DNA of 64,000 bases from Escherichia phage AV112. A program made the position numbers and the translations under genes. Under the pieces are notes generated by a model. The model made no database searches. It worked only from the letters and a program-made list of their open reading frames with translations, and had not been told where the DNA came from. The DNA is taken from the sequence record OR352942.1. One strand, given 5' to 3'. Positions within the stretch are counted from its first letter, which is position 1. Every line of letters begins with the position of its first letter. This document shows positions 5,017 through 59,557 of the stretch, one piece after another.

Positions 5017-6588
5017 ATGAAATTTAATATCTTAAGTTTGTTTGCTCCATGGGCAAAAATGGACGAACGTGATTACAAAGACCAAGAAAAAGAAAATTTA
5101 GAATCTATCACCGCACCAAAATTGGACGACGGCGCTAAAGAATATGAAGTATCTGAAAATGAAGCACAGCAAACATATAATGCTATGTTTCAGAGAATGT
5201 TCGGTAGTCAAGAACCAGGGCTCAAATCAACCCGTGAATTAATCGATACGTATCGAAATTTGATGACGAACTATGAAGTGGATAACGCGGTCTCTGAAAT
5301 AGTTTCCGATGCTATCGTGTATGAAGATGATACAGAAGTCGTTTCTATAAATTTAGACAACACAAAATTTAGTCCAAATATCAAATCAATGATGTTGGAT
5401 GAATTTAATGAAGTGTTAAATCATTTATCTTTCCAACGTAAAGGTTCAGATCATTTTAGACGTTGGTATGTGGATTCTCGAATTTTCTTCCATAAAATTA
5501 TTGACCCTAAACGCCCTAAAGAAGGTATTAAAGAGCTTCGTCGTTTAGACCCACGTCAAGTTCAATATGTCCGTGAAGTTATTACAACCACTGAAGCCGG
5601 TGTTAAAATAGTCAAGGGTTATAAAGAATATTTCATTTATGACACATCACAAGAATCTTATGCTTGTGATGGTCGCATATATGAAGCTGGCACAAAAATA
5701 AAAATCCCTAAAGCCGCGATTGTTTATGCCCATTCTGGTTTAGTTGATTGTTGTGGTAAAAATATCATCGGTTATTTGCATCGGGCTATTAAGCCAGCGA
5801 ACCAATTAAAACTTCTTGAAGATGCCGTCGTAATTTATCGTATTACTCGTGCTCCCGATCGTCGTGTATGGTACGTTGATACAGGTAATATGCCTTCAAG
5901 AAAAGCAGCAGAACATATGCAACATGTTATGAATACGATGAAAAACCGTATTGCGTATGATGCTACTACAGGCAAGATTAAAAACCAGCAGCATATTATG
6001 TCGATGACCGAAGATTATTGGTTACAACGACGTGACGGTAAAGCGGTAACAGAAGTTGACACATTACCAGGTGCAGATAATACTGGAAATATGGAAGATG
6101 TACGTTGGTTCCGTAATGCTCTTTATATGGCTTTACGTATTCCTATTACCCGTATTCCAAGTGACCAAGGTGGTATACAGTTTGATGCTGGTACTTCTAT
6201 TACGCGAGATGAATTGACATTTGGTAAATTTATTCGTGAGCTGCAACATAAATTTGAAGAGATATTCCTAGACCCGCTTAAAACTAATTTAATTCTTAAA
6301 GGAATTATTACAGAAGATGAGTGGAATGATGAAATAAATAATATTAAGATAAAATTTCATCGGGATAGTTATTTCTCGGAATTAAAGGATGCTGAGATTC
6401 TGGAGCGTCGCATTAATATGCTTCAGATGGCCGAACCATTTATTGGTAAATATATTTCTCACAGAACAGCTATGAAAGATATTCTTCAGATGTCTGACGA
6501 GGAAATTGAACAAGAGGCTAAGCAAATTGAAGAAGAGTCGAAAGAGGCTCGTTTCCAAGACCCCGACCAAGAACAAGAGGATTTTTAA
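5017..6588 (+). CDS. 20: Portal vertex protein gp20
   Basis: 523 aa (T4 gp20 524); late promoter 29 nt upstream; synteny. Confidence 0.95.
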
Positions 6589-6818
6589 TGGACGATTTAA
6601 TTCAAGCTATTAAATCAAACGACCTCGTTGCTACTCGAAAGTTTTTTGAAAGTGCAATGGCAGAAAAAACGGTTCGTTTGATTGAAGCACGCAAAGCAGA
6701 AATCGCTTCTCAATTTTTGATTGAAGGCGAAGAACCTGAAGAAGAGAAAGCTTCGGAAGACGACGAAGACGAAGACGAAGATGATGACGAAGACGAAGAT
6801 GATGAGGACGATGAATAA
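6588..6818 (+). CDS. 67: Prohead core protein gp67 with poly-acidic C-terminus
   Basis: 76 aa; Asp/Glu-rich tail; start overlaps gene 20 stop; position between 20 and 68. Confidence 0.85.
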
Positions 6819-7243
6819 TGTATCTTATCCCTGAATCTTATGAATTGGTACTCGAAAATGTCGAAGCACTTATTCCTGAAGCACAGGGCCGAATCGATGC
6901 ATTGTCTTCTGCTCTCGATATTGACGATATAAATACTATTATCGAGAACATGCTTGAAACTGAAACGGATTTAGCTGTTGCAATGGCTTCCATTATTAAT
7001 GAAGAACAGTTAAATGAGTTTATCGTTAAACATGTTTCTTCTCGTGGTGAAGTCACTCGCACTAAAGACCGTAAAACTCGTGAACGTAACGCGTTCCAAA
7101 CAACTGGTCTTTCTAAAGCAAAACGTAGACAAATCGCTCGTAAGGTCGTTAAAGCTAAAAAAGCTAACCCTTCAGGCCAAGTTAAAGGCTTGCGTAAGCG
7201 TAAAAAAGCTCTTAAACGTCGTAAAGCATTAGGATTAAGCTAA
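6818..7243 (+). CDS. 68: Prohead core protein gp68
   Basis: 141 aa as in T4; basic C-terminus; synteny. Confidence 0.85.
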
Positions 7244-7884
7244 TGAATAAACCCGAGTTACTTATTGAAACTTGGGGTCAACCCGGTGAGATTATTGATG
7301 GCGTTCCAATGTTGGAATCTCATGATGGAAAAGATTCTGGCTTAAAACCAGGGCTTTATATAGAAGGTATTTTTCTTCAGGCAGAGGTTGTTAACCGAAA
7401 TAAACGTTTATATCCTAAACGCGTTTTGGAAAAAGCAGTAAGTGACTATATTAAAGAACAAGTCGAAACCAAACAAGCCCTTGGAGAATTAAACCATCCA
7501 CCTCGTGCAAATGTTGACCCCATGCAAGCCGCTATCATTATTGAAGATATGTGGTGGAAAGGAAACGATGTATATGGACGTGCTAGAATTATTGAAGGCG
7601 ACCATGGTCCCGGTGATAAATTAGCTGCTAATATACGTGCTGGTTGGATTCCAGGTGTTTCCTCTCGTGGTCTTGGTTCTTTAACCGACACCAATAAAGG
7701 GTACCGTATCGTGAACGAAGGATTTAAATTAACCGTCGGCGTAGATGCCGTATGGGGACCTTCTGCTCCAGATGCTTGGGTTACTCCTAAACAAATATCA
7801 GAATCAGAAAATTCGGTGGAAATCACCAAAAACAGTGCTGATGAAGCATTTAAAGCTCTCGCAGAGAGTTTAAAAGCATTATAA
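7243..7884 (+). CDS. 21: Prohead core protease gp21
   Basis: 213 aa (T4 212); synteny 68-21-22. Confidence 0.9.
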   Translation: MNKPELLIETWGQPGEIIDGVPMLESHDGKDSGLKPGLYIEGIFLQAEVVNRNKRLYPKRVLEKAVSDYIKEQVETKQALGELNHPPRANVDPMQAAIIIEDMWWKGNDVYGRARIIEGDHGPGDKLAANIRAGWIPGVSSRGLGSLTDTNKGYRIVNEGFKLTVGVDAVWGPSAPDAWVTPKQISESENSVEITKNSADEAFKALAESLKAL

Positions 7885-7887
7885 ATA
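7880..7887 (+). promoter_or_regulatory. Late promoter TATAAATA (gene 22)
   Basis: Exact TATAAATA 31 nt upstream of start. Confidence 0.7.
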
Positions 7888-7917
7888 ATAATGTAATCTA
7901 AACCACAGGACACTAAA

Positions 7918-8730
7918 ATGATCAAAGAACAACTTTTGAAAGAAGCTCAAAACATCGAGACTTCAGTTGCTCTTAATAGTGTTTTCGAATCAGTAGAACT
8001 GTCTCCGGACGTTAAAGCTAATTTCAGCACTGTATTCGAAGCCACCGTTAAGCAGGAAGCAGTCAAACTGGCTGAATCTCATATCAAAGCCATCGCCGAA
8101 AAGGCCGAAGAAGAAGTTGAAAAGGCCAAAGAAGATGCTGAAGAGAAAGCTGATAAAAAATTGGCTGAACAAGCTTCTAAATTCCTAGACCATCTTGCAA
8201 AAGAATGGCTCGCAGAAAACCAAATCGCAGTTGATAAAGGCATTAAAGCTGATTTGTTCGAATCCATGCTTGGTGGTCTGAAAGAACTGTTTGTTGAACA
8301 TAACGTTGTTGTTCCAGAAGAATCTGTAGATGTTGTAGCAGAAATGGAAGAAGAGCTGGCCGAACATAAAGAAGAAACCGCTCGTTTGTTCGAAGAAGTT
8401 ACCAAACGTGATGCATATATCAATTACGTTCAGCGTGAAACCGCTATTAATGAAAGCGTAAAAGACCTGACTGAATCTCAGAAAGAAAAAGTTATTGGCC
8501 TGGTTGAAGGTATGGATTATTCTGACGCATTTGGTACTAAGTTAACTGCTATTGTAGAAATGGTTAAAGGTTCTACTAAAGAAGAAGCCGCTATTACCGA
8601 AAGTATAAATACAGTTGACAATGACGCTGCCGGTCTTAATTTTGTTGCCGAAGCAGTTGACACTACCACAACTCAGGTAGAACAGAATTCTAATGTAAGT
8701 TTATATGCGAAAGTCGCATCTCGTTTCTAA
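7918..8730 (+). CDS. 22: Prohead scaffold core protein gp22
   Basis: 270 aa, acidic coiled-coil-like; late promoter upstream; synteny. Confidence 0.9.
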   Translation: MIKEQLLKEAQNIETSVALNSVFESVELSPDVKANFSTVFEATVKQEAVKLAESHIKAIAEKAEEEVEKAKEDAEEKADKKLAEQASKFLDHLAKEWLAENQIAVDKGIKADLFESMLGGLKELFVEHNVVVPEESVDVVAEMEEELAEHKEETARLFEEVTKRDAYINYVQRETAINESVKDLTESQKEKVIGLVEGMDYSDAFGTKLTAIVEMVKGSTKEEAAITESINTVDNDAAGLNFVAEAVDTTTTQVEQNSNVSLYAKVASRF

Positions 8731-8747
8731 TTTAAAGGTTAACACAA

Positions 8748-10370
8748 ATGACTACTATCAAAACTAAAGCTCAGCTCGTAGACAAATGGAAAGAACTGCT
8801 GGAAGGTGAAGGCCTGCCGGAAATCGCTAATAGCAAGCAGGCTATTATCGCTAAAATCTTCGAAAACCAGGAAAAAGATTTCGAAGTATCCCCTGAATAT
8901 AAAGACGAGAAAATCGCTCAGGCATTTGGTTCTTTCTTGACCGAAGCTGAAATTGGTGGTGACCATGGTTATAATGCTCAGAACATCGCAGCAGGTCAAA
9001 CCTCTGGTGCAGTAACCCAAATTGGGCCAGCAGTTATGGGTATGGTTCGTCGTGCTATTCCTAATCTGATCGCTTTTGATATTTGTGGTGTTCAGCCTAT
9101 GAACAGCCCGACCGGTCAGGTATTTGCTCTCCGTGCAGTATATGGTAAAGACCCTATCGCTGCTGGCGCTAAAGAAGCTTTCCATCCGATGTATGCCCCG
9201 GACGCGATGTTCTCTGGTCAGGGTGCTGCTAAGAAATTCCCAGCTCTGGCTGCTGACACTACTACTGTTGTAGGTGATATCTATACTCACTTCTTCCAAG
9301 AAACTGGTACCGTATATCTGCAAGCTTCTGCTATCGTAACACTTGATTCTGGTGCGACTGATGCTGCTAAATTAGATGCCGAAGTTAAGAAACAAATGGA
9401 AGCTGGTGCGACTGATGCTGCTAAATTAGATGCCGAAGTTAAGAAACAAATGGAAGCTGGTGCACTGGTAGAAATCGCTGAAGGTATGGCTACTTCTATC
9501 GCTGAACTCCAGGAAGGTTTCAACGGTTCTACCGATAACCCATGGAATGAAATGGGCTTCCGTATCGATAAACAAGTTATTGAAGCTAAATCTCGCCAGC
9601 TGAAAGCTGCTTACTCTATCGAATTAGCACAAGACCTCCGTGCAGTACACGGTATGGATGCTGATGCTGAACTGAGCGGTATTCTGGCTACAGAAATTAT
9701 GCTAGAAATCAACCGTGAAGTTGTTGATTGGATTAACTACTCAGCACAGGTTGGTAAATCTGGTATGACCCTGACTCCGGGTTCTAAAGCCGGTGTATTT
9801 GACTTCCAGGACCCGATTGATATCCGTGGTGCTCGTTGGGCCGGTGAAAGCTTTAAATCTCTGTTGTTCCAGATTGATAAAGAAGCAGTTGAAATTGCTC
9901 GTCAAACCGGTCGTGGTGAAGGTAACTTCATTATCGCTTCCCGTAACGTAGTTAACGTACTGGCTTCAGTTGATACTGGTATTTCTTACGCTGCACAGGG
10001 TCTGGCTTCTGGTTTTAATACCGACACTACTAAGTCTGTATTTGCCGGTGTACTTGGTGGTAAATACCGCGTATACATCGACCAGTATGCTAAACAGGAT
10101 TACTTCACCGTTGGTTACAAAGGCGCTAACGAAATGGATGCAGGTATTTACTATGCTCCTTACGTTGCACTTACCCCACTGCGTGGTTCCGATCCTAAGA
10201 ACTTCCAGCCGGTAATGGGCTTTAAAACTCGTTACGGTATCGGTGTTAACCCGTTTGCTGAAAGTTCCCTGCAGGCTCCAGGTGCTCGCATCCAGTCCGG
10301 TATGCCGTCTATCCTGAACAGCCTTGGTAAGAACGCTTACTTTAGACGCGTCTACGTTAAAGGAATTTAA
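8748..10370 (+). CDS. 23: Major capsid protein gp23 (540 aa; carries internal 18-aa tandem duplication)
   Basis: T4 gp23-like throughout (T4 is 521 aa); C-terminus ...FRRVYVKGI; contains perfect 2x54-nt repeat at 9351-9458. Confidence 0.95.
   Translation: MTTIKTKAQLVDKWKELLEGEGLPEIANSKQAIIAKIFENQEKDFEVSPEYKDEKIAQAFGSFLTEAEIGGDHGYNAQNIAAGQTSGAVTQIGPAVMGMVRRAIPNLIAFDICGVQPMNSPTGQVFALRAVYGKDPIAAGAKEAFHPMYAPDAMFSGQGAAKKFPALAADTTTVVGDIYTHFFQETGTVYLQASAIVTLDSGATDAAKLDAEVKKQMEAGATDAAKLDAEVKKQMEAGALVEIAEGMATSIAELQEGFNGSTDNPWNEMGFRIDKQVIEAKSRQLKAAYSIELAQDLRAVHGMDADAELSGILATEIMLEINREVVDWINYSAQVGKSGMTLTPGSKAGVFDFQDPIDIRGARWAGESFKSLLFQIDKEAVEIARQTGRGEGNFIIASRNVVNVLASVDTGISYAAQGLASGFNTDTTKSVFAGVLGGKYRVYIDQYAKQDYFTVGYKGANEMDAGIYYAPYVALTPLRGSDPKNFQPVMGFKTRYGIGVNPFAESSLQAPGARIQSGMPSILNSLGKNAYFRRVYVKGI
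9351..9458 (+). repeat. Perfect 2 x 54-nt in-frame tandem duplication inside gene 23
   Basis: Copy 1 at 9351-9404 is identical to copy 2 at 9405-9458; encodes GATDAAKLDAEVKKQMEA twice. Confidence 0.95.
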
Positions 10371-10399
10371 TGCTTTAACGTTAAAATACATAACCTTAT

Positions 10400-10427
10400 G
10401 GGAGACTTCGGTCTCCCATTTTTGGTT
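10400..10427 (+). terminator. Rho-independent terminator after gene 23 (GGGAGAC-UUCG-GUCUCCC plus U-run)
   Basis: Perfect 7-bp stem with UUCG tetraloop followed by T-run. Confidence 0.7.
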
Positions 10428-10697
10428 TTATTTCTGTGCAATTTCAATGTAAGTTTTCAAAATATTTTGCCAATTAGGCATACCTTCTTGGACATATGCT
10501 GGAGAACCGTCTTTGTTTTTGAATGATGCAAGTTTATCAGTGGCCCAATAACCTTTAGCTCGAGCTTCAGAATCAACTTTCATCCATACTTTGTTGAAGG
10601 CATTACCATTAACTTTTGCACCATATTTTTCTACTAACTTAGCTGCTTCAGCTTCCAGAACTTTTAAAGTATCTCGTAAGAAACGTGCTTTAGTCAT
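10428..10697 (-). CDS. Hypothetical 89-aa protein, antisense to the late capsid operon (segD position in T4)
   Basis: ORF with GAGGAG RBS 7 nt upstream and early-type promoter GTTTAC-N18-TACTAT upstream; no nuclease motifs seen. Confidence 0.55.
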   Translation of the reverse strand: MTKARFLRDTLKVLEAEAAKLVEKYGAKVNGNAFNKVWMKVDSEARAKGYWATDKLASFKNKDGSPAYVQEGMPNWQNILKTYIEIAQK

Positions 10698-10724
10698 TTT
10701 GTTTACTCCTCTGTAGTTGATAAG

Positions 10725-10760
10725 TCTATAGTATCACATACCAAATACGTTGTAAACAAT
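10725..10760 (-). promoter_or_regulatory. Early-type promoter (-35 GTTTAC, 18-nt spacer, -10 TACTAT)
   Basis: Read on minus strand upstream of ORF 10428-10697. Confidence 0.6.
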
Positions 10761-10763
10761 CTT

Positions 10764-10771
10764 TATAAATA
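10764..10771 (+). promoter_or_regulatory. Late promoter TATAAATA (gene 24)
   Basis: Exact TATAAATA 28 nt upstream of start. Confidence 0.7.
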
Positions 10772-10798
10772 ATCTATATCACATAAGGAAAAAATGCA

Positions 10799-12082
10799 AT
10801 GAGTAAAATCCAAAAATTATTGCGTGAATCTACAACGTCTACTAGCAACTCAATTGGTCGCCCAAATCTCGTTGCTTTGACTCGCGCTACGACTAAATTA
10901 ATATATTCTGACATTGTAGCAACACAAAGAACTAATCAACCTGTTGCTGCTTTTTATGGTATCAAATATCTTAACCCAGATAACGAATTCACATTTAAAA
11001 CTGGTGCTACTTATGCAGGCGAAGTTGGATATGTGGACCGAGAAAAAATTACTGAGCTCACAGAAGATTCAAAAGCCACACTAAATAAAGGCGATTTTTT
11101 CAAATATAATAATATCGTCTATAAAGTGTTAGAAGATACACCGTTTGCAGATATTCAAGAAAGTGATCTAGAACTAGCTCTTCAGATTGCAATCGTTCAT
11201 TTAAAGGTACGGTTATTTTCAGATGCAGCGGTAACAAGCAAATTTGAAAGCTCTGATAGCGAAATTTCTGATGCAAGATTCCAGATTAATAAATGGCAAA
11301 CTTCGGTCAAATCTCGTAAACTTAAAACTGGTCTCACGGTTGAATTAGCGCAAGATTTGGAAGCGAATGGATTTGATGCCCCTAACTTCTTAGAAGATTT
11401 GCTTGCTACTGAAATGGCTGATGAAATTAATAAAGATATTCTTCAGTCTTTAATTACTGTATCTAAACGCTATAAAGTTACTGGAATTACTGACACCGGA
11501 TTTATTGACTTGAGCTATGCATCCGCTCCAGAAGCAGGTCGTTCATTATATCGAATGGTGTGTGAAATGGTATCACACATTCAAAAAGAGACAACTTATA
11601 CTGCAACGTTTTGTGTAGCCTCAGCTCGTGCAGCTGCTATTCTTGCTGCTTCTGGTTGGTTAAAACATAAGCCAGAAGATGACAAGTATCTTTCACAAAA
11701 TGCTTATGGATTCTTGGCAAATGGATTACCTCTTTACTGCGATACCAACAGTCCGTTAGATTATGTTATTGTGGGTGTTGTAGAAAATATCGGCGAAAAA
11801 GAAATTGTAGGGTCCATCTTTTATGCTCCATACACTGAAGGAGTAGATTTAGATGACCCTGAACATGTTGGTGCATTTAAAGTTGTAGTTGATCCAGAAA
11901 GCTTGCAACCGTCTATCGGATTATTGGTTAGATATGCTTTATCAGCAAATCCTTACACAGTAGCAAAAGATGAAAAAGAAGCGAGAATAATTGATGGCGG
12001 GGACATGGATAAAATGGCAGGACGTTCAGACTTGTCTGTTTTACTCGGTGTTAAATTGCCAAAAATCATCGTTGATGAATAA
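10799..12082 (+). CDS. 24: Capsid vertex protein gp24
   Basis: 427 aa as in T4 gp24; late promoter 28 nt upstream. Confidence 0.9.
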   Translation: MSKIQKLLRESTTSTSNSIGRPNLVALTRATTKLIYSDIVATQRTNQPVAAFYGIKYLNPDNEFTFKTGATYAGEVGYVDREKITELTEDSKATLNKGDFFKYNNIVYKVLEDTPFADIQESDLELALQIAIVHLKVRLFSDAAVTSKFESSDSEISDARFQINKWQTSVKSRKLKTGLTVELAQDLEANGFDAPNFLEDLLATEMADEINKDILQSLITVSKRYKVTGITDTGFIDLSYASAPEAGRSLYRMVCEMVSHIQKETTYTATFCVASARAAAILAASGWLKHKPEDDKYLSQNAYGFLANGLPLYCDTNSPLDYVIVGVVENIGEKEIVGSIFYAPYTEGVDLDDPEHVGAFKVVVDPESLQPSIGLLVRYALSANPYTVAKDEKEARIIDGGDMDKMAGRSDLSVLLGVKLPKIIVDE

Positions 12083-12120
12083 AAAAAAAAAGGGACCTTA
12101 CGGTCCCTTTTTTTTTATGA
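12081..12120. terminator. Bidirectional terminator between gene 24 and rnlB (A10-GGGACC-uuac-GGUCCC-T10)
   Basis: Hairpin flanked by A-run and T-run, between convergent genes. Confidence 0.8.
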
Positions 12121-13776: not shown

Positions 13777-14628
13777 TTATTGATAGGTATAGATGATACC
13801 AGTTTCTAAAGCAGTTTTATGAATGATGTATCCATTACGTGATTCTTGAACATCAACTTCTGGATAATCTTGCAACATCTTCTGAAGAGTGTAACGATGC
13901 AGGTAGTATTTACTATCTGGATCTTCAGTTTTCCAATCTTTACCTTCTTCGGTCATTTTTTGGATTTCATCCATAACCCACCAACCGCACCAGATGTAAG
14001 CTGAAGTACGATGTGGAAGAGGATGAACATAAGGTAATTCGCCTTCTGGTTCTTGAGCAACTTTATCATTCACAGTCAGTGATACTTCATTCGAAGTAAC
14101 TTCCTTTGCATCATAATCTGTCGCTGTTACTTGAGCTACACACTTAATTGTTTTAACTCCGCTTGTGGAAGGAGTGTAATTAAATGTAGCAGAAGTTGCT
14201 TCGCCTACAGGAGAACCGTCAACGTACCACTGATACGTAGCAGATGCGCCTGATGGTTGAGAAGCTAAAGCAGCAGTAAATTCAACAGGAGTTCCAATCG
14301 CTCCAGCAGCAGGACTATCAGGAGTTACAGCTAAGGTAGTTGACTGAGTTTTATTTTTAACTGTGATAGTTGTTGTCGCTTCAGCCGTTTCCGGGCCTCC
14401 TTCAGAAAGTGTATTTGTTGCAACAACTTTAATTGTTTTTGTTCCAGCAGGTCCTTTTAACACATAATCAAAAGTTGCTTCAGATCCATCTTGTTGAACA
14501 TTATCTACAGTCCAAGCATAGGTAATAGTTCCACCTCCAGTTTCACCACTGGGTGTAGCAGTAAACTGCTGAGTCTGATCTATAACTCCAGTAGGTGTTT
14601 TAGGAGTTATATCAACTGTAAAAGTCAT
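13777..14628 (-). CDS. hoc: Hoc head outer capsid protein (283 aa; shorter than T4 Hoc)
   Basis: N-terminus MTFTVDITPKTPTGVID and C-terminal capsid-binding region match T4 Hoc; Ig-like repeats. Confidence 0.9.
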   Translation of the reverse strand: MTFTVDITPKTPTGVIDQTQQFTATPSGETGGGTITYAWTVDNVQQDGSEATFDYVLKGPAGTKTIKVVATNTLSEGGPETAEATTTITVKNKTQSTTLAVTPDSPAAGAIGTPVEFTAALASQPSGASATYQWYVDGSPVGEATSATFNYTPSTSGVKTIKCVAQVTATDYDAKEVTSNEVSLTVNDKVAQEPEGELPYVHPLPHRTSAYIWCGWWVMDEIQKMTEEGKDWKTEDPDSKYYLHRYTLQKMLQDYPEVDVQESRNGYIIHKTALETGIIYTYQ

Positions 14629-50662: not shown

Positions 50663-53600
50663 ATGGCCGACATCAAACGTAAGTTCAGAGCCGAAGACGG
50701 TCTGGACGCCGGTGGCGACAAGATTGTTAACGTAGCATTAGCCGACCGTACAGTAGGTACTGATGGCGTAAACGTTGACTTCCTGGTACAAGAAAACACC
50801 GTTCAAGTATATGATTCTACGCGCGGATATAACAAAGGATTTGTTGTTCTTTATGACAACCGTTTATATCAAGCAATAAATGATATCGTGTCTCCTTCCG
50901 GGGCATTTAACCTTTTACAATGGCGTGCAGTTCGTACCGATGCACAATGGATAACTGTCTCTTCTGGGACTTATCAACTTTCTTCAGGTGAATCGATTTC
51001 GGTTAACACTGGTGCCGGCAATGATATGGTTTTCACATTGCCAAATGCGCCGGTTGATGGTGACACTGTTGTTTTGGCTGATATTGGTGGAAGAACCGGG
51101 ACAGTTAAAGTACAGATTAACGCGTCTGTGCAGAGTATTTTAAACTTTAGAGGTGAACAAGTTCGTACAGTTTTAATGACGCGCCCACGTTCACAACTAT
51201 TGTTTGTGTTTAGTAATCGTTTGTGGCAGATGTATATTACCGATTATGGTAAAGAATCAATCACTGTTACACCTGCGGCACCATATCAAGCACAAGCAAA
51301 TGATTTTATCGTTCGTCGTTTTACTAGTGCAGCACCAATCAACATTACACTTCCACGTAATGCTAACAATGGTGATATAATCAGCCTAGTCGATTTAGAT
51401 AGATTAAACCCACTGTATCATACAATTGTTAAAACATTTGATGATACAACGTCTATTGGTGAAGTCGGGACTCATATTGCCGAAGGCAGAAATGACTCTG
51501 ACGCGTTTTTTGTTTTTGATGCTGCAAATAGTTTATGGCGTATATGGGAAGGCGACCAGAAATCGCGTCTTCGTATTATCCGTGTGGATTCAAATATTCG
51601 TCCAAATGAAGAAGTTCTTATTTTTGGCACAAATAACGCTACAGCCGGAACTATTAATCTTACGCTGCCTTCTGGAATTTTGAGTGGTGACACCGTTAAA
51701 ATTTCAATGAACTACATGCGTAAAGGCCAAACAGTAAAAATTAAAGCTGCCGAAGGTGATACAATTGCTTCTTCTGTTGCGTTGCTTCAGTTCCCTAAAC
51801 GTTCGGAGTATCCACCTGATGCACAATGGGTCTCTGTTACTGAACTAGAATTCAATGGCACTACTTCATATGTTCCTGTATTAGAATTAGCGTATATCGA
51901 AGACACCGTTGCTGGTACGCGTTATTGGGTTGTTAAACAAAACGTCCCAACTGTAGAACGTGTCGATGCTGGAACTGATACAACTAGAGCTCGTGTAGGT
52001 GTTATTGCTCTTGCAACTCAGGCACAGGCAAATGTTGATTTTGAAAATTCTCCGGCTAAAGAAGTTGCTATTACTCCTGAAACGTTGGCAAATCGTACAG
52101 CAACTGAAGCTCGACGTGGTATCGCCAAAATTGCTACAACAGCACAAGTTAACCAGAATTCCACAGCAACATTTGTAGACGATACTATTGTTACGCCTAA
52201 AAAATTAAATGAGCGTACAGCAACTGAAACTCGTCGCGGTCTTGCTGAAATTGCTACTCAGACTGAAACCGATGCTGGTCTTGATGACACAACGATTATT
52301 ACGCCTAAGAAATTACAGGCACGTCAGGGTTCCGAAACACTATCGGGTATAGTTAAATATGTATCAACTACTTCTGCTACTCCTGCCGAAACTCGTGGGG
52401 CTGCAGGCACTAATGTTTATAATAAAACCGTAAATAATTTAACTATTTCTCCTAAAGCCCTTGACCAATATAAAGCAACTTACGCCCAACAAGGTGCAGT
52501 AATTTTAGCTATTGATAGTGAAGTAATTGCTGGACAATCTCAGTCTGGATACTCTCATGCTGTAGTAACTCCTGAAACACTACATAAGAAAACTTCTACT
52601 GATGGACGTATTGGTTTAATTGAAATTGCTACGCAAGCAGAAACTAATGCTGGGACTGATTATACACGTGCAGTAACGCCTAAGACGTTAAATGATAGGA
52701 GAGCGACGGAAGGATTATCCGGCATAGCCGAAATTGCTACGCAAGTTGAATTTGATACTGGAACTGATGATACTCGTATCTCGACTCCACTGAAAATTAA
52801 AACTCATTTTGATTCTTCTGACCGTACCAGTGTTAATTCTGATTCCGGACTTATTGAAGAAGGAACCTTGTGGAACCATTATACTCTTGATATTTCTAAA
52901 GCAAATGAAACACAACGTGGTACACTTCGCGTAGCGACCCAGGCAGAATCTAATGCAGGAACTTTAGATGATGTTCTTATTACTCCTAAAAAGCTTTTAG
53001 GGACTAAGTCCACTGAAACGTCTGAAGGTGTAATCAAGGTTGCAACCCAGTCTGAAACTGTGACTGGAACGTCAGCGAACACTGCTGTATCTCCTAAGAA
53101 TTTAAAATGGATTGTGCAGAGTGAACCAACATGGGCTGCTACTACAGCAATTCGCGGATTCGTTAAAACTTCATCCGGTTCTATTACATTCGTTGGTAAT
53201 GATACAGTCGGTTCTACACAAAACTTAGAGCTATACGAGAAAAATAGCTATGCAGTATCACCGTATGAATTAAACCGTGTATTGGCAAATTACTTGCCAT
53301 TAAAAGCAAAAGCTGCTGACGCAAATTTATTAGATGGCCTAGATTCATCTCAGTTCATTCGTAGGGACATTGCACAGACGGTTAATGGTTCACTAACCTT
53401 AACCCAACAAACGAATCTGAGTGCCCCTCTTGTATCATCTAGTACGGCTACGTTTGGTGGTTCGGTATCTGCTAATAGTACATTAACTATTTCTAATACA
53501 GGTGCTTCAACTCGCTTAATATTTGAAAAAGGTCCACAAACTGGAAACAACCCTGCTCAGGCGATGAATATCCGTGTATGGGGTAACCAATTCGCCGGCG

Positions 53601-56410: not shown

Positions 56411-59400
56411 ATGGCTACATTAAAACAGATACAATTTAAAAGAAGCAAAGTAGCAGGAGTTAATCCTACTGCAGCACAATTAGCCGAAGGCGAATTAGCG
56501 ATAAACTTAAAAGATCGAACTCTTTTTACTAAAGATGACCTCGGTAATATTATTAGCCTAGGCTTTGCTAAGGGCGGGGATATTAACGGTAATGTAACTC
56601 AAAATGGAGATTATTTACAGAACGGTACATATAATCTCAATGGAAACCAGTTTGTTTATGCAGGAAAGTATATTGAATTCTTGCCAAAAACTGCTGGAAA
56701 TGGCGCTTGGGCTAACCAACACACAAATAAAGCCCCTATCTTTACAGATTTGAGTTCAACTACTTCAACTTCTGAATACCATCCTTTGATTAAGCAACGT
56801 TATAAAAACGGTACTTTTTCAGCAGGTACATTAGTAAGCGAAGGTAGTTTTAAAATTCACTATATCGATGAAACAGGTGATTCAAAATATTGGACTTTTA
56901 ACCGTAACGGTAGTTTTATTGTAGATAACGGCAATATTGAAGTCCGCGCCGGTAATATTTCGGCTTCAGGTAATATTAACTCTGCTTCAGGGGTTGTGTC
57001 TGCGCCACGCGTCAACACAAAAAATATTAACTTGAGTTCTAAAACCTTTATCCCGAATAATGACGCGGGTTATGACATTGTTTCTTTACCTACTTGGATT
57101 TATAATCCACCAGCAGATGGTTCAGACCGTGATACAAACGGATTGAACTACATGCGTAAAATGCGTGCATCAAACACATCCAGCATTTTCCATGAAATTG
57201 TCGATTGCCGTAAAGACAAGCCGCAAGAAATTTCTTGGTGGACTGGTGTAGGGCCGTCATCTTTCCAATGGTCGTTTGATACCACTGGACGTATTGCTGC
57301 CGGTAAATCAATTTCTGTAGGTCTTCCTGATAATGGTGTGAATGGTCGTTATCCGCTTGAGTCTGCAATTTCTATTGGTATTGCAATTGGTGATAACGAC
57401 ACCGGTATTAAATGGGTCCGCGACGGTGTTATTGATTTCATGGCTAATGGTATTTCATCCGCTACCATTTTGAATAACGGTATTAACAGTACTAAGAAAT
57501 TGATGGTCGGTTATAGCCGCGATTCTGGTACTACTTGGGATTTCCCAAATAACAACCAAGCAATGTTTACTGCTCGTACTGATATTGATGGTAATAATAA
57601 CGGCGATGGACAGACTCATATCGGTTATAGCAGCAATTCTAAAATGTATCACTATTTCCGTGGCACGGGTCGTATGGCTATTGGCATGGCCGAAGGACTT
57701 ATTGTTGAACCAGGAATTTTAGATATTAAAACTAGTTCAAATACATTAAGTTTGCGTGCTGATGGTACCGTCGCTTCTGTTCAAACATTAAAGCTTAATA
57801 ATGGATTATATTTTAATGGTGATGGAACTAATGCTTCTCTAGTTTTTAAAGCAGCTTCAGGTATTGACGGCACTAAGCAAATCATGTGGGAAGGCGGTAC
57901 TCGAGCAGGTCAGAATAAGAGTTATGTAACTGTTAAAGCATGGGGTAATTCATTTAACGCATCCGGCGATCGTACTCGTGAAACAGTTTTTGAAGTAGCT
58001 GACGGGCAGGGATATTATTTTTATTCACAGCGTGTGGCTCCAACCGGTTCAGAAACTGTGGGACCTGTTGTAACACAAATTAATGGACAACTGAATGCAA
58101 GAGGGAGCATTATCACCGATGGAAGTCTTAGAGTTAATGGATTAAGTACATTATCCGGACAAGTTACTATGGATAACGGGCTTGTTTTATCCGGCGGTGG
58201 TTCTATTACCGGTCAAGTTAAAATCGGTAATACCGCAGATGCTTTCCGTATTTACAATGCTGAATATGGAGCTATTTTCCGTCGTTCTGAAGCATCTTTG
58301 TATATTATACCTACTCCTAAAGATGCCGGAGAATCAGGAGGTATAAGTAATCTTAGACCATTGACAATAGAACTGAACACTGGTACAGTTAAAATGTCAC
58401 ATGATGTTCATTTGGGAGATTCTGGATCCGGCACAGGATTATTACAAGTAAGTAATAGTCTTAAAACTATTAAAATGATATGTCCAGTAACTATTAATGA
58501 ACGTAATGCAGCGCTTACTCTAGATTCTCCTTCATCTTCTTCTGCTAATTATTTGCAGGGTTCTAAAGCTGGAACTAGATCTTGGTATGTTGGTCTTGGT
58601 GGTTCTGGAAATGATTTATCACTTTATAGCCAATCGTATGGACATGGTCTTGTTATAAGTGATAATTTCGTGTCAATCACTAAACCCTTTAAAGTCGGAA
58701 ATGCCCAACTAGGAACTGATGGTAATATCACCGGTGGTTCTGGTAATTTTGCTAACTTGAATACCACAATAAATAACCTTAAGACGGATATTGTCTCAAG
58801 TTATCCAATTGGTGCTCCAATTCCATGGCCAACGGATACTCCTCCTAATGGTTACGCTATTATGGAAGGTCAGACTTTTGATAAGTCTGCATATCCAAAG
58901 TTAGCTGTTGCATATCCTAGTGGTGTTATTCCAGATATGCGTGGGCAAACTATCAAGGGTAAACCAAGTGGTCGTGCTGTTTTGAGCGCAGAAGCAGACG
59001 GTGTTAAGTCACATAGCCATAGTGCAAGTGCATCAAGCACAGATTTAGGTACTAAGACCACTTCTAGTTTTGATTACGGTAGCAAAACGACTTCAAGCTT
59101 TGATTATGGTACTAAGACAAGTAGTACCACTGGCAACCATAACCATACAGTGAGTGGTAATACTAGTTCCGCTGGTGCTCACCAACACGCGCGTTCAGGC
59201 CCTCAGATACAAGGCGGCGTACCCGCTAGCATATTCTATGATGGATACAATAGTGCCGGTCCAAACGGCAACGCTAAAATCACTGGAAGCGTGAGCGGTG
59301 CTACTGCATCGTCGAATATGGCCAAAACTTCTTCAGACGGTGCCCACACCCATAGTTGGTCTGGTACTACTAGCGCCACAGGTAACCATGCGCATACGGT

Positions 59401-59557
59401 AGGTATTGGCGCTCATACCCATTCGGTAGGTATTGGTGCTCATACGCATACTGTTGCAATTGGTTCCCATGGACATACAATAACTGTAAATGCCACAGGA
59501 AATACAGAAAACACAGTTAAAAACGTTGCTTTTAACTATATCGTTCGTTTAGCATAA
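56411..59557 (+). CDS. 37: Long tail fibre distal subunit gp37 (receptor-binding)
   Basis: 1048 aa (T4 1026); C-terminal His-x-His boxes and conserved ...[14 protein letters not shown] end. Confidence 0.95.
59048..59137 (+). repeat. Degenerate 30-nt (10-aa) tandem repeat in gp37 tip region
   Basis: [10 protein letters not shown] / [10 protein letters not shown] / [10 protein letters not shown]; copies differ at synonymous sites. Confidence 0.8.

Follow-up and report, generated by a model that had tools for sequence, protein, structure and literature searches.

Gene 23 of Escherichia phage AV112 (sequence record OR352942.1), which encodes the major capsid protein gp23, was analyzed within a window of 64,000 nucleotides, i.e., the whole stretch of phage DNA considered here. 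The open reading frame (ORF) comprises 540 amino acids (aa) and contains, within the part coding for the insertion (I) domain, two directly adjacent copies of a 54-bp unit (Table 1). AV112 and the closely related phage AV113 are Mosigvirus isolates from Danish wastewater, and the AV112 genome (167,943 bp) is one base longer than that of AV113 (PMC10844046).

The identity of the gene is supported by several lines of evidence. The counterpart ORF in the AV113 record (OR352943) is annotated as "major capsid protein" (WPK34652.1). The translated product matched the Pfam family PF07068 (Gp23) with an E-value of 4.6e-121 and 405 bits (cut-off 24.4 bits), residues 89–536 corresponding to positions 1–375 of the 376 positions of the profile. 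A phmmer comparison with gp23 of phage T4 gave E = 0 and a colinear match of query residues 3–540 to T4 residues 2–521. When aligned to T4 gp23 (521 aa; sequence of PDB entries 6UZC/7VS5), the protein showed a single 18-residue gap, all other differences being conservative, and a second length difference in the form of one extra N-terminal threonine (MTTIK versus MTIK). The gap and the additional N-terminal residue explain the excess of 19 aa over T4 gp23. The original prediction, made from the sequence alone, had recognized gene 23 and had attributed almost all of the difference between 540 and 521 aa to the duplication, which agrees with the annotation, the Pfam match and the T4 alignment (18 of the 19 aa). 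The head genes in the OR352943 annotation (5017–12082) show T4-like synteny in the order portal, prohead core, protease/scaffold, gene 23 and gene 24, with gene 23 placed between the scaffold genes on one side and gene 24, coding for the vertex protein, on the other. The surroundings of the T4 cleavage point are conserved as well; the mature chains in PDB entries 8GMO and 5VF3 begin with AEIGG, which corresponds to query residue 67. Removal of the N-terminal approximately 65 residues and assembly into hexamers are predicted as family traits of the protein. By all sequence-level criteria, gene 23 of AV112 is a typical gp23 family gene.

The two copies of the 54-bp unit are identical base for base and follow each other head to tail without a spacer. 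Two identical 54-mers cannot arise by chance. Tandem Repeats Finder reported an array at 9349–9467 with a period of 54, 2.2 copies and a score of 231, which is the top-scoring tandem repeat of the window. The duplicated unit begins at codon 202 of gene 23 with a frame offset of 0, and the duplication is thus in frame. A perfect in-frame tandem duplication spanning 9351–9458 had been predicted originally, with gp23 residues 202–219 repeated as residues 220–237, and both statements were confirmed, the former by direct sequence comparison and the latter by translation of the ORF. Identity at period 54 extends beyond both units and spans 9349–9463, owing to the 7-mer CTGGTGC. This direct repeat bounds the unit at both ends and is also present at the joint. 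The probability of such an additional 7-bp flank match occurring by chance was estimated from the base composition to be about 7e-4. For comparison, the joint of a single-copy gene reads TTCTGGTGCGACT...GAAGCTGGTGCACTGG.

Table 1. Features of gene 23 and of the duplicated unit in the AV112 window.
Feature	Position	Strand	Remarks
Gene 23, major capsid protein gp23	8748..10370	+	540 aa including the duplication; assigned from ORF list, OR352943 annotation, Pfam and T4 alignment
I-domain region and adjacent linker segments	9195..9533	+	Residues 150-262; AlphaFold crop matches the T4 I-domain in 7VRT/8GMO
Left CTGGTGC	9349..9355	+	ST0 has CTAGTGC here
Copy 1 of the 54-bp unit	9351..9404	+	gp23 residues 202-219, GATDAAKLDAEVKKQMEA; "extra" segment in the structural models
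Junction CTGGTGC, novel joint of the two units	9403..9409	+	Junction-spanning query colinear only in AV113
Copy 2 of the 54-bp unit	9405..9458	+	gp23 residues 220-237, GATDAAKLDAEVKKQMEA; modelled as the native I-domain helix running into GALVEIAEG
Right CTGGTGC	9457..9463	+	Followed by unique sequence ACTGGTAGAA

The distribution of the duplication among relatives was analyzed with a 601-nt query, which matched 978 phage records; the 40 top-listed records and an even sample of the whole ranking were inspected. Among the inspected records, AV113 was the only one that was colinear with the query over all 601 nt. In the 39 other top-listed records and in every sampled record matching over the full span, 541–553 nt were covered in two pieces, and this single-copy set includes T4, T2 and RB phages. 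Five further Mosigvirus genomes obtained in the same study with the same pipeline (AV109, AV110, AV114, AV115, and AV116) also possess a single copy at the gene 23 locus. A query across the novel joint was colinear, among phage records, only with AV113. The census covers listed or sampled records, and similar variants could be concealed in single-copy clusters by the clustering at 90% identity. A degenerate DNA pattern for the joint peptide (MEA/GATDAA) gave no match in IMG/VR viral contigs and nine matches in metagenome contigs (241 million records), all of them in unrelated proteins containing MEAGATDAA and none in gp23. The exact 540-aa product is encoded by no assembly on record other than those of AV112 and AV113.

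At the protein level, the 540-aa product was the longest among the best 120 of 7,167 gp23 cluster representatives. In an alignment of 72 sequences (down to about 70% identity), the distance between the two anchors flanking the loop was 64 aa in AV112 and 40–48 aa in the 71 other representatives, and none of these 71 contained an internally repeated 8-mer. The insertions and deletions of gp23 homologs cluster at residues ~141–225, which is almost the sole length-variable part of the mature protein. There, the length of the loop varied by -6 to +2 residues in the 71 representatives, and the sampled phage genomes differed by ±6 nt. The duplication in AV112 and AV113 thus shares its location with the natural length variation in the I domain of T4-like phages, but whereas the natural variants differ by a few residues of divergent sequence, AV112 and AV113 have gained 18 residues that form an internal repeat. 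An insertion of 18 residues had been considered unusual for the lattice protein, and this holds true for its length, since the other gp23 proteins examined vary by a few residues at most at this site. Few phage structural proteins are as conserved and as well studied as gp23, in whose mature part changes in length are uncommon and small.

The closest relative was phage ST0 (MF044457). After removal of one copy of the unit, gene 23 of AV112 differed from that of ST0 at 14 of 1569 nt and at 1 of 522 aa. The sole amino acid difference is located at the left boundary of the unit, where AV112 has a glycine codon (CTGGTGC) and ST0 a serine codon (CTAGTGC), and ST0 therefore lacks the perfect 7-bp flanking repeat. 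ST0, HY126, and RPN187 each have one copy of the segment GATDAAKLDAE(V/I)KKQMEA. The exact single-copy ancestor allele was not found in phage records, in which the best match was 98.8%. Judged from these sequences, the glycine codon that completes the perfect 7-bp repeat is specific to the AV112/AV113 lineage. The inspected relatives thus proved to have a single copy, as had been anticipated for T4 and other T-even gp23 sequences, and the duplication is not universal among close relatives. As a separate observation, 9 of the 14 nucleotide differences to ST0 are concentrated in a 25-bp segment at the 3′ end of the gene (~10289–10313; gene positions 1542–1566). All nine are synonymous, and the cluster resembles a recombination or mosaic boundary more than the outcome of point mutation.

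The anatomy of the locus suggests how the duplication may have originated. A single-copy ancestor would have contained two occurrences of CTGGTGC at a distance of 54 bp. Mispairing of slipped strands during replication, or unequal recombination involving these two short direct repeats, would then have created the head-to-tail duplication of 54 bp, with CTGGTGC remaining at either end and at the joint. As the left repeat remains unchanged in such an event, the immediate ancestor would already have had CTGGTGC on the left. Slippage or unequal exchange between short direct repeats is a classical mechanism, described for deletions and duplications in the rII region of T4. Because the copies show no divergence and no inspected relative carries the duplication, the event is likely to have occurred very recently, on the terminal branch. 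Microhomology-mediated tandem duplications in general share with the AV112 locus perfect head-to-tail copies and a short direct repeat that bounds the unit and is kept at the joint. A non-phage example with a 7-bp microhomology has been reported (PMC7643612). Compared to such duplications, there is no departure in mechanism, and what is unusual is the target, an essential and highly conserved gene for a capsid lattice protein. A literature search yielded no directly relevant report of a tandem duplication in a phage major capsid gene or of a T4 duplication by slippage, and the paper describing the isolates does not mention the duplication (PMC10844046). The mechanism is thus unsurprising, and the variant itself is one for which this search found no earlier report. 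Taken together, it is likely that gene 23 of one Mosigvirus lineage, represented by AV112 and AV113, has undergone a real and very recent tandem duplication that is tolerated on the capsid surface. Of the options considered in the original prediction, a very recent duplication is therefore favored by the zero divergence of the copies, the single-copy relatives and the microhomology.

Another of these options was an artefact of assembly. In this case the phage would possess one copy, and the second would have been created by pasting overlapping contig ends or by a wrong traversal of the de Bruijn graph, either during assembly or when the genome was re-oriented to terS. Perfect identity of the copies is what an untrimmed overlap would produce, and every AV genome was rotated so that it starts with the start codon of terS. 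The workflow is incompletely documented, with the paper naming CLC Genomics Workbench and a feature label in the record naming SPAdes, and since AV112 and AV113 differ by assembly-type noise only, shared processing is possible. However, the depositors annotated a 127-bp misc_feature "Dupl_ends_SPAdes" in the AV113 record at 51555..51681 (51556–51682 of the window), which marks where the circular source contig had its ends and lies in the long tail fibre gene, 42 kb away from gene 23. This segment occurs once in the sequence, indicating that the true contig-end overlap was found and trimmed. The only single-nucleotide polymorphism (SNP) between AV112 and AV113 falls 1 bp before this feature, which fits noise at contig ends and marks the position of the real ones. 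Moreover, the unit in gene 23 measures 54 bp and not 127 bp as the SPAdes overlap, and neither a 7-bp flanking microhomology (about 7e-4) nor an in-frame position (1 in 3) nor a location on the one loop known to tolerate insertions would be expected of a pasted overlap. The contig-end overlap was therefore rejected as an explanation.

An error in graph traversal is also difficult to reconcile with the local sequence. In the de-duplicated locus, exact repeats do not exceed 12 bp, which is below the usual k-mer of assemblers. SPAdes uses k-mers of 21 or longer. With repeats of at most 12 bp and k of at least 21, a single-copy template would make no cycle in the graph, and the joint would have to be present in the reads. 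At k = 127, twenty 127-mers hold both entire copies together with unique flanks, which implies single reads spanning the duplication; the phages were sequenced with MiSeq 2 × 250 reads (PMC10844046). In the five Mosigvirus genomes that passed through the same pipeline besides AV112 and AV113, the locus holds a single copy, which likewise speaks against an artefact. On the basis of the trimmed end overlap elsewhere in the genome, the microhomology and the single-copy sister genomes, an assembly artefact is very improbable.

The AV112 region matches AV113 (OR352943.1) at 100% and at equal coordinates, and the identical 540-aa protein is deposited under two accessions, WPK34392.1 for AV112 and WPK34652.1 for AV113. 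Over the entire 64 kb compared, only two differences between the phages were found. AV112 has A11 instead of A10 in an intergenic poly-A run after gene 24 (12081–12091), and the SNP mentioned above is an A instead of a T at position 51555. These two differences indicate that the duplication is present in two separate assemblies. The phages were isolated on wild extended-spectrum beta-lactamase (ESBL) E. coli strains, AV112 and AV113 being reported from different isolation hosts (PMC10844046). The host assignment is conflicting, as GenBank record OR352943 gives ESBL153 as host of AV113, whereas Table 1 of PMC10844046 lists ESBL56 for AV113 and ESBL153 for AV112; hosts or labels may have been swapped between GenBank and the paper. 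The phages came from just two wastewater samples, with enrichment where direct plating had failed, and went through three or more rounds of single-plaque purification, plus propagation, before sequencing. The host-range profiles of AV112 and AV113 were described as similar to that of AV110, and nothing unusual was reported for them (PMC10844046). AV110 has a single-copy gene 23.

This close relationship raises the question of whether the duplication, although real, was born in the laboratory during enrichment or propagation, or was passed from one stock to the other by cross-contamination. In this case it would represent a laboratory mutation rather than a genotype present in wastewater. The identity of AV112 and AV113 over 64 kb, apart from a homopolymer base and a base at the joint of the contig ends, would be consistent with such an origin, as would the small number of wastewater samples with their enrichment step and the absence of the joint from the 241 million metagenome records and from IMG/VR. 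Absence from metagenomes, however, is weak evidence in the case of a rare genotype, different isolation hosts were reported for the two isolates, and a mutation acquired during propagation would have had to sweep through single-plaque bottlenecks. We consider a laboratory origin or a transfer between the stocks unlikely. Either would be compatible with a real and recent duplication, as the explanations are not mutually exclusive.

To describe the effect on the protein, the insertion has to be placed relative to T4 gp23. Because the unit and the sequence following it both start with glycine, the change is equivalent to an insertion of ATDAAKLDAEVKKQMEAG between the glycine and the alanine matching G201 and A202 of T4 gp23. 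This position lies at the tip of a flexible loop of the I domain that is exposed to solvent. The I domain is a globular bump of about 60 residues that rests on the neighboring subunit and reinforces the capsomer, and the 18 extra residues enlarge it by approximately 30%. A full-length AlphaFold2 model was discarded (predicted local distance difference test score, pLDDT, 45; predicted TM-score, pTM, 0.29), and only a crop comprising residues 150–262 was used. This crop reached a pLDDT of 68.6 with a confident β-hairpin core, and the core matched the solved T4 I-domain in 7VRT (TM-score 0.64, root-mean-square deviation 2.3 Å) and also that in 8GMO. In this model, copy 2 takes the form of the native helix (residues 224–237), with pLDDT means of 10-residue blocks rising from 68 to 87, while copy 1 was modelled with low confidence (pLDDT ~55–59) and a short predicted helix at residues 211–218. 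According to these models, copy 2 would keep the native helix and its packing, and copy 1 would form an additional loop and a short helix projecting from the capsid surface. A native I-domain with an extra loop and a short helix pointing outwards is thus the likeliest structure, the predicted conformation of the insert being of low confidence.

The same position of gp23 has been used for protein engineering. PDB entry 8GMO shows a T4 capsid carrying DEDEDEDED (9DE) in gp23 at the same G/A position (Zhu et al., Nat Commun 2023; PMC10229621), and the alignment reads VTIDAG-DEDEDEDED-ATDAAK in 8GMO versus VTLDSG-ATDAAKLDAEVKKQMEAG-ATDAAK in AV112. The 9DE loop was described as flexible and solvent-exposed, with up to nine acidic residues being tolerated with normal plaques and yield, and the six equivalent loops were described to form a ring on each hexamer (PMC10229621). 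In 9DE-gp23 as well as in AV112 and AV113, the latter being known from their sequences, the insert lies at the equivalent of G201/A202 in the solvent-exposed I-domain loop and would be present in every gp23 subunit on the hexamer exterior. They differ in that 9DE is a designed, purely acidic and unstructured insert of 9 residues, which was introduced by CRISPR into T4, a Tequatrovirus, and gave viable phages with normal plaques, whereas the insert of the Mosigvirus phages AV112 and AV113 is natural, comprises 18 residues, is nearly neutral (net charge -1) and represents a copy of the adjacent loop and amphipathic helix. The 8,370 extra charges reported for 9DE (PMC10229621) correspond to 930 subunits per head. 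Assuming T4 geometry, the duplication would add about 1.86 kDa and a net charge of -1 per subunit; over a whole head, the approximately 930 inserts would amount to 16,740 residues and about 1.73 MDa, with a net charge of -930. The original prediction had spoken of an insertion in the capsid lattice protein. This is correct with respect to gp23 being the lattice protein, but the site itself is a solvent-exposed loop of the I domain that accepts insertions and not part of the lattice-forming core.

Since the site faces outward and accepts a 9-residue insert in T4, and since plaque purification and propagation of the phage succeeded, it is probable that the variant assembles and is approximately neutral. 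If the consensus sequence is correct, the 540-aa gp23 probably makes infectious particles, as suggested by the plaque-purified stock. Several points weigh against a real duplication that is tolerated on the capsid. The tolerance of the loop was stated for up to nine acidic residues, and 18 residues exceed the tested length (PMC10229621). The viability of the duplicated allele is deduced from the consensus sequence of a plaque-purified stock, the support comes from assembled sequences, and there is no third, independent assembly on record. AV112 and AV113 are essentially one clone, and as both of their differences look like assembly noise, they are weak biological replicates, for which cross-contamination or shared processing is possible. 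Finally, the full-length model was poor and the placement of copy 1 in the crop is of low confidence.

A selected capsid variant, as also considered originally, would mean that the duplication is real and of benefit, with the enlarged I-domain bump altering, for example, the recognition of freshly synthesized gp23 by host defence, binding of Hoc, capsid stability, or adhesion to surfaces. Such a benefit would explain why the allele persists in spite of the instability of tandem repeats. The protein is a documented trigger of the anti-T-even defence system CmdTAC via the chaperone CmdC, and wild ESBL E. coli strains served as isolation hosts of the phages. Two isolations, made on different hosts, yielded the allele, which persisted through at least three plaque purifications and propagation. 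In addition, six loops ring each hexamer in the 9DE capsid (PMC10229621), Hoc attaches at the hexamer center, and a Hoc-like gene is present in the window, which makes an effect of the duplication on Hoc conceivable. On the other hand, the study on CmdTAC recovered no gp23 escape mutants and stated that the interacting region is unknown, and the isolation paper reports nothing unusual for AV112 and AV113, whose host range resembles that of the single-copy phage AV110. The allele is confined to one clone, without divergence and without spread to the inspected relatives, which fits a young neutral variant equally well. Positive selection of the duplication is thus quite unlikely. Its more specific form, an adaptive remodelling of the capsid surface in which the doubled loop and helix alter the recognition of nascent or assembled gp23, e.g., by a CmdTAC-like abortive-infection system or by Hoc, appears decidedly improbable. 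If true, it would be the first natural allele for escape or adaptation to be located in gp23's I-domain, and this loop would accommodate a structured insert of 18 or more residues about 930 times per head. According to a review from 2010, which gives no residue numbers, head-length (petite/giant) and bypass-24 mutations are found at the periphery of the capsomer as well as within it.

Some further features of the window were noted. A 283-aa ORF on the minus strand (13777–14628), annotated as "capsid and scaffold protein", corresponds to a Hoc-like head decoration protein (phrog_1149, E-value 1.7e-103) with a sub-threshold match to PKD/Ig-like Pfam families, and its gene is located between rnlB and inh, as in T4. 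T4 Hoc has 376 aa, and the Hoc-like protein is thus shorter. An 89-aa ORF on the minus strand (10428–10697), located between genes 23 and 24, belongs to no Pfam family and matches phrog_6003 (unknown function). Besides the array in gene 23, a perfect tandem repeat of 18 bp × 2.1 (GACGAAGACGAAGATGAT) was found at 6768–6805, nested in an array of the hexamer GACGAA, which encodes an acidic D/E run in the gene of the small prohead core protein (6588–6818). Imperfect tandem repeats are present at 8098–8142 in the gp22 scaffold gene (21 bp × 2.1, 87% matches) and at 59387–59451 in the gp37 long-tail-fibre gene (27 bp × 2.4, 84% matches).

A practical consequence for annotation is that the 540-aa protein should not be regarded as an error to be "corrected". 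If confirmed, a tandem duplication of 54 bp in gene 23 of AV112 and AV113 would provide a natural, partly helical insert of 18 residues at the very loop that is used by engineers of T4 nanoparticles, with twice the length reported to be tolerated. This suggests that longer structured peptides could be displayed in the I-domain loop, at about 930 copies per head and without the need for fusions to Soc or Hoc. The locus would also represent a clean and datable microhomology-mediated duplication in an essential capsid gene, caught before any divergence of the copies. Duplications of this kind are presumably the raw material for the length-variable I domain of T4-like phages.

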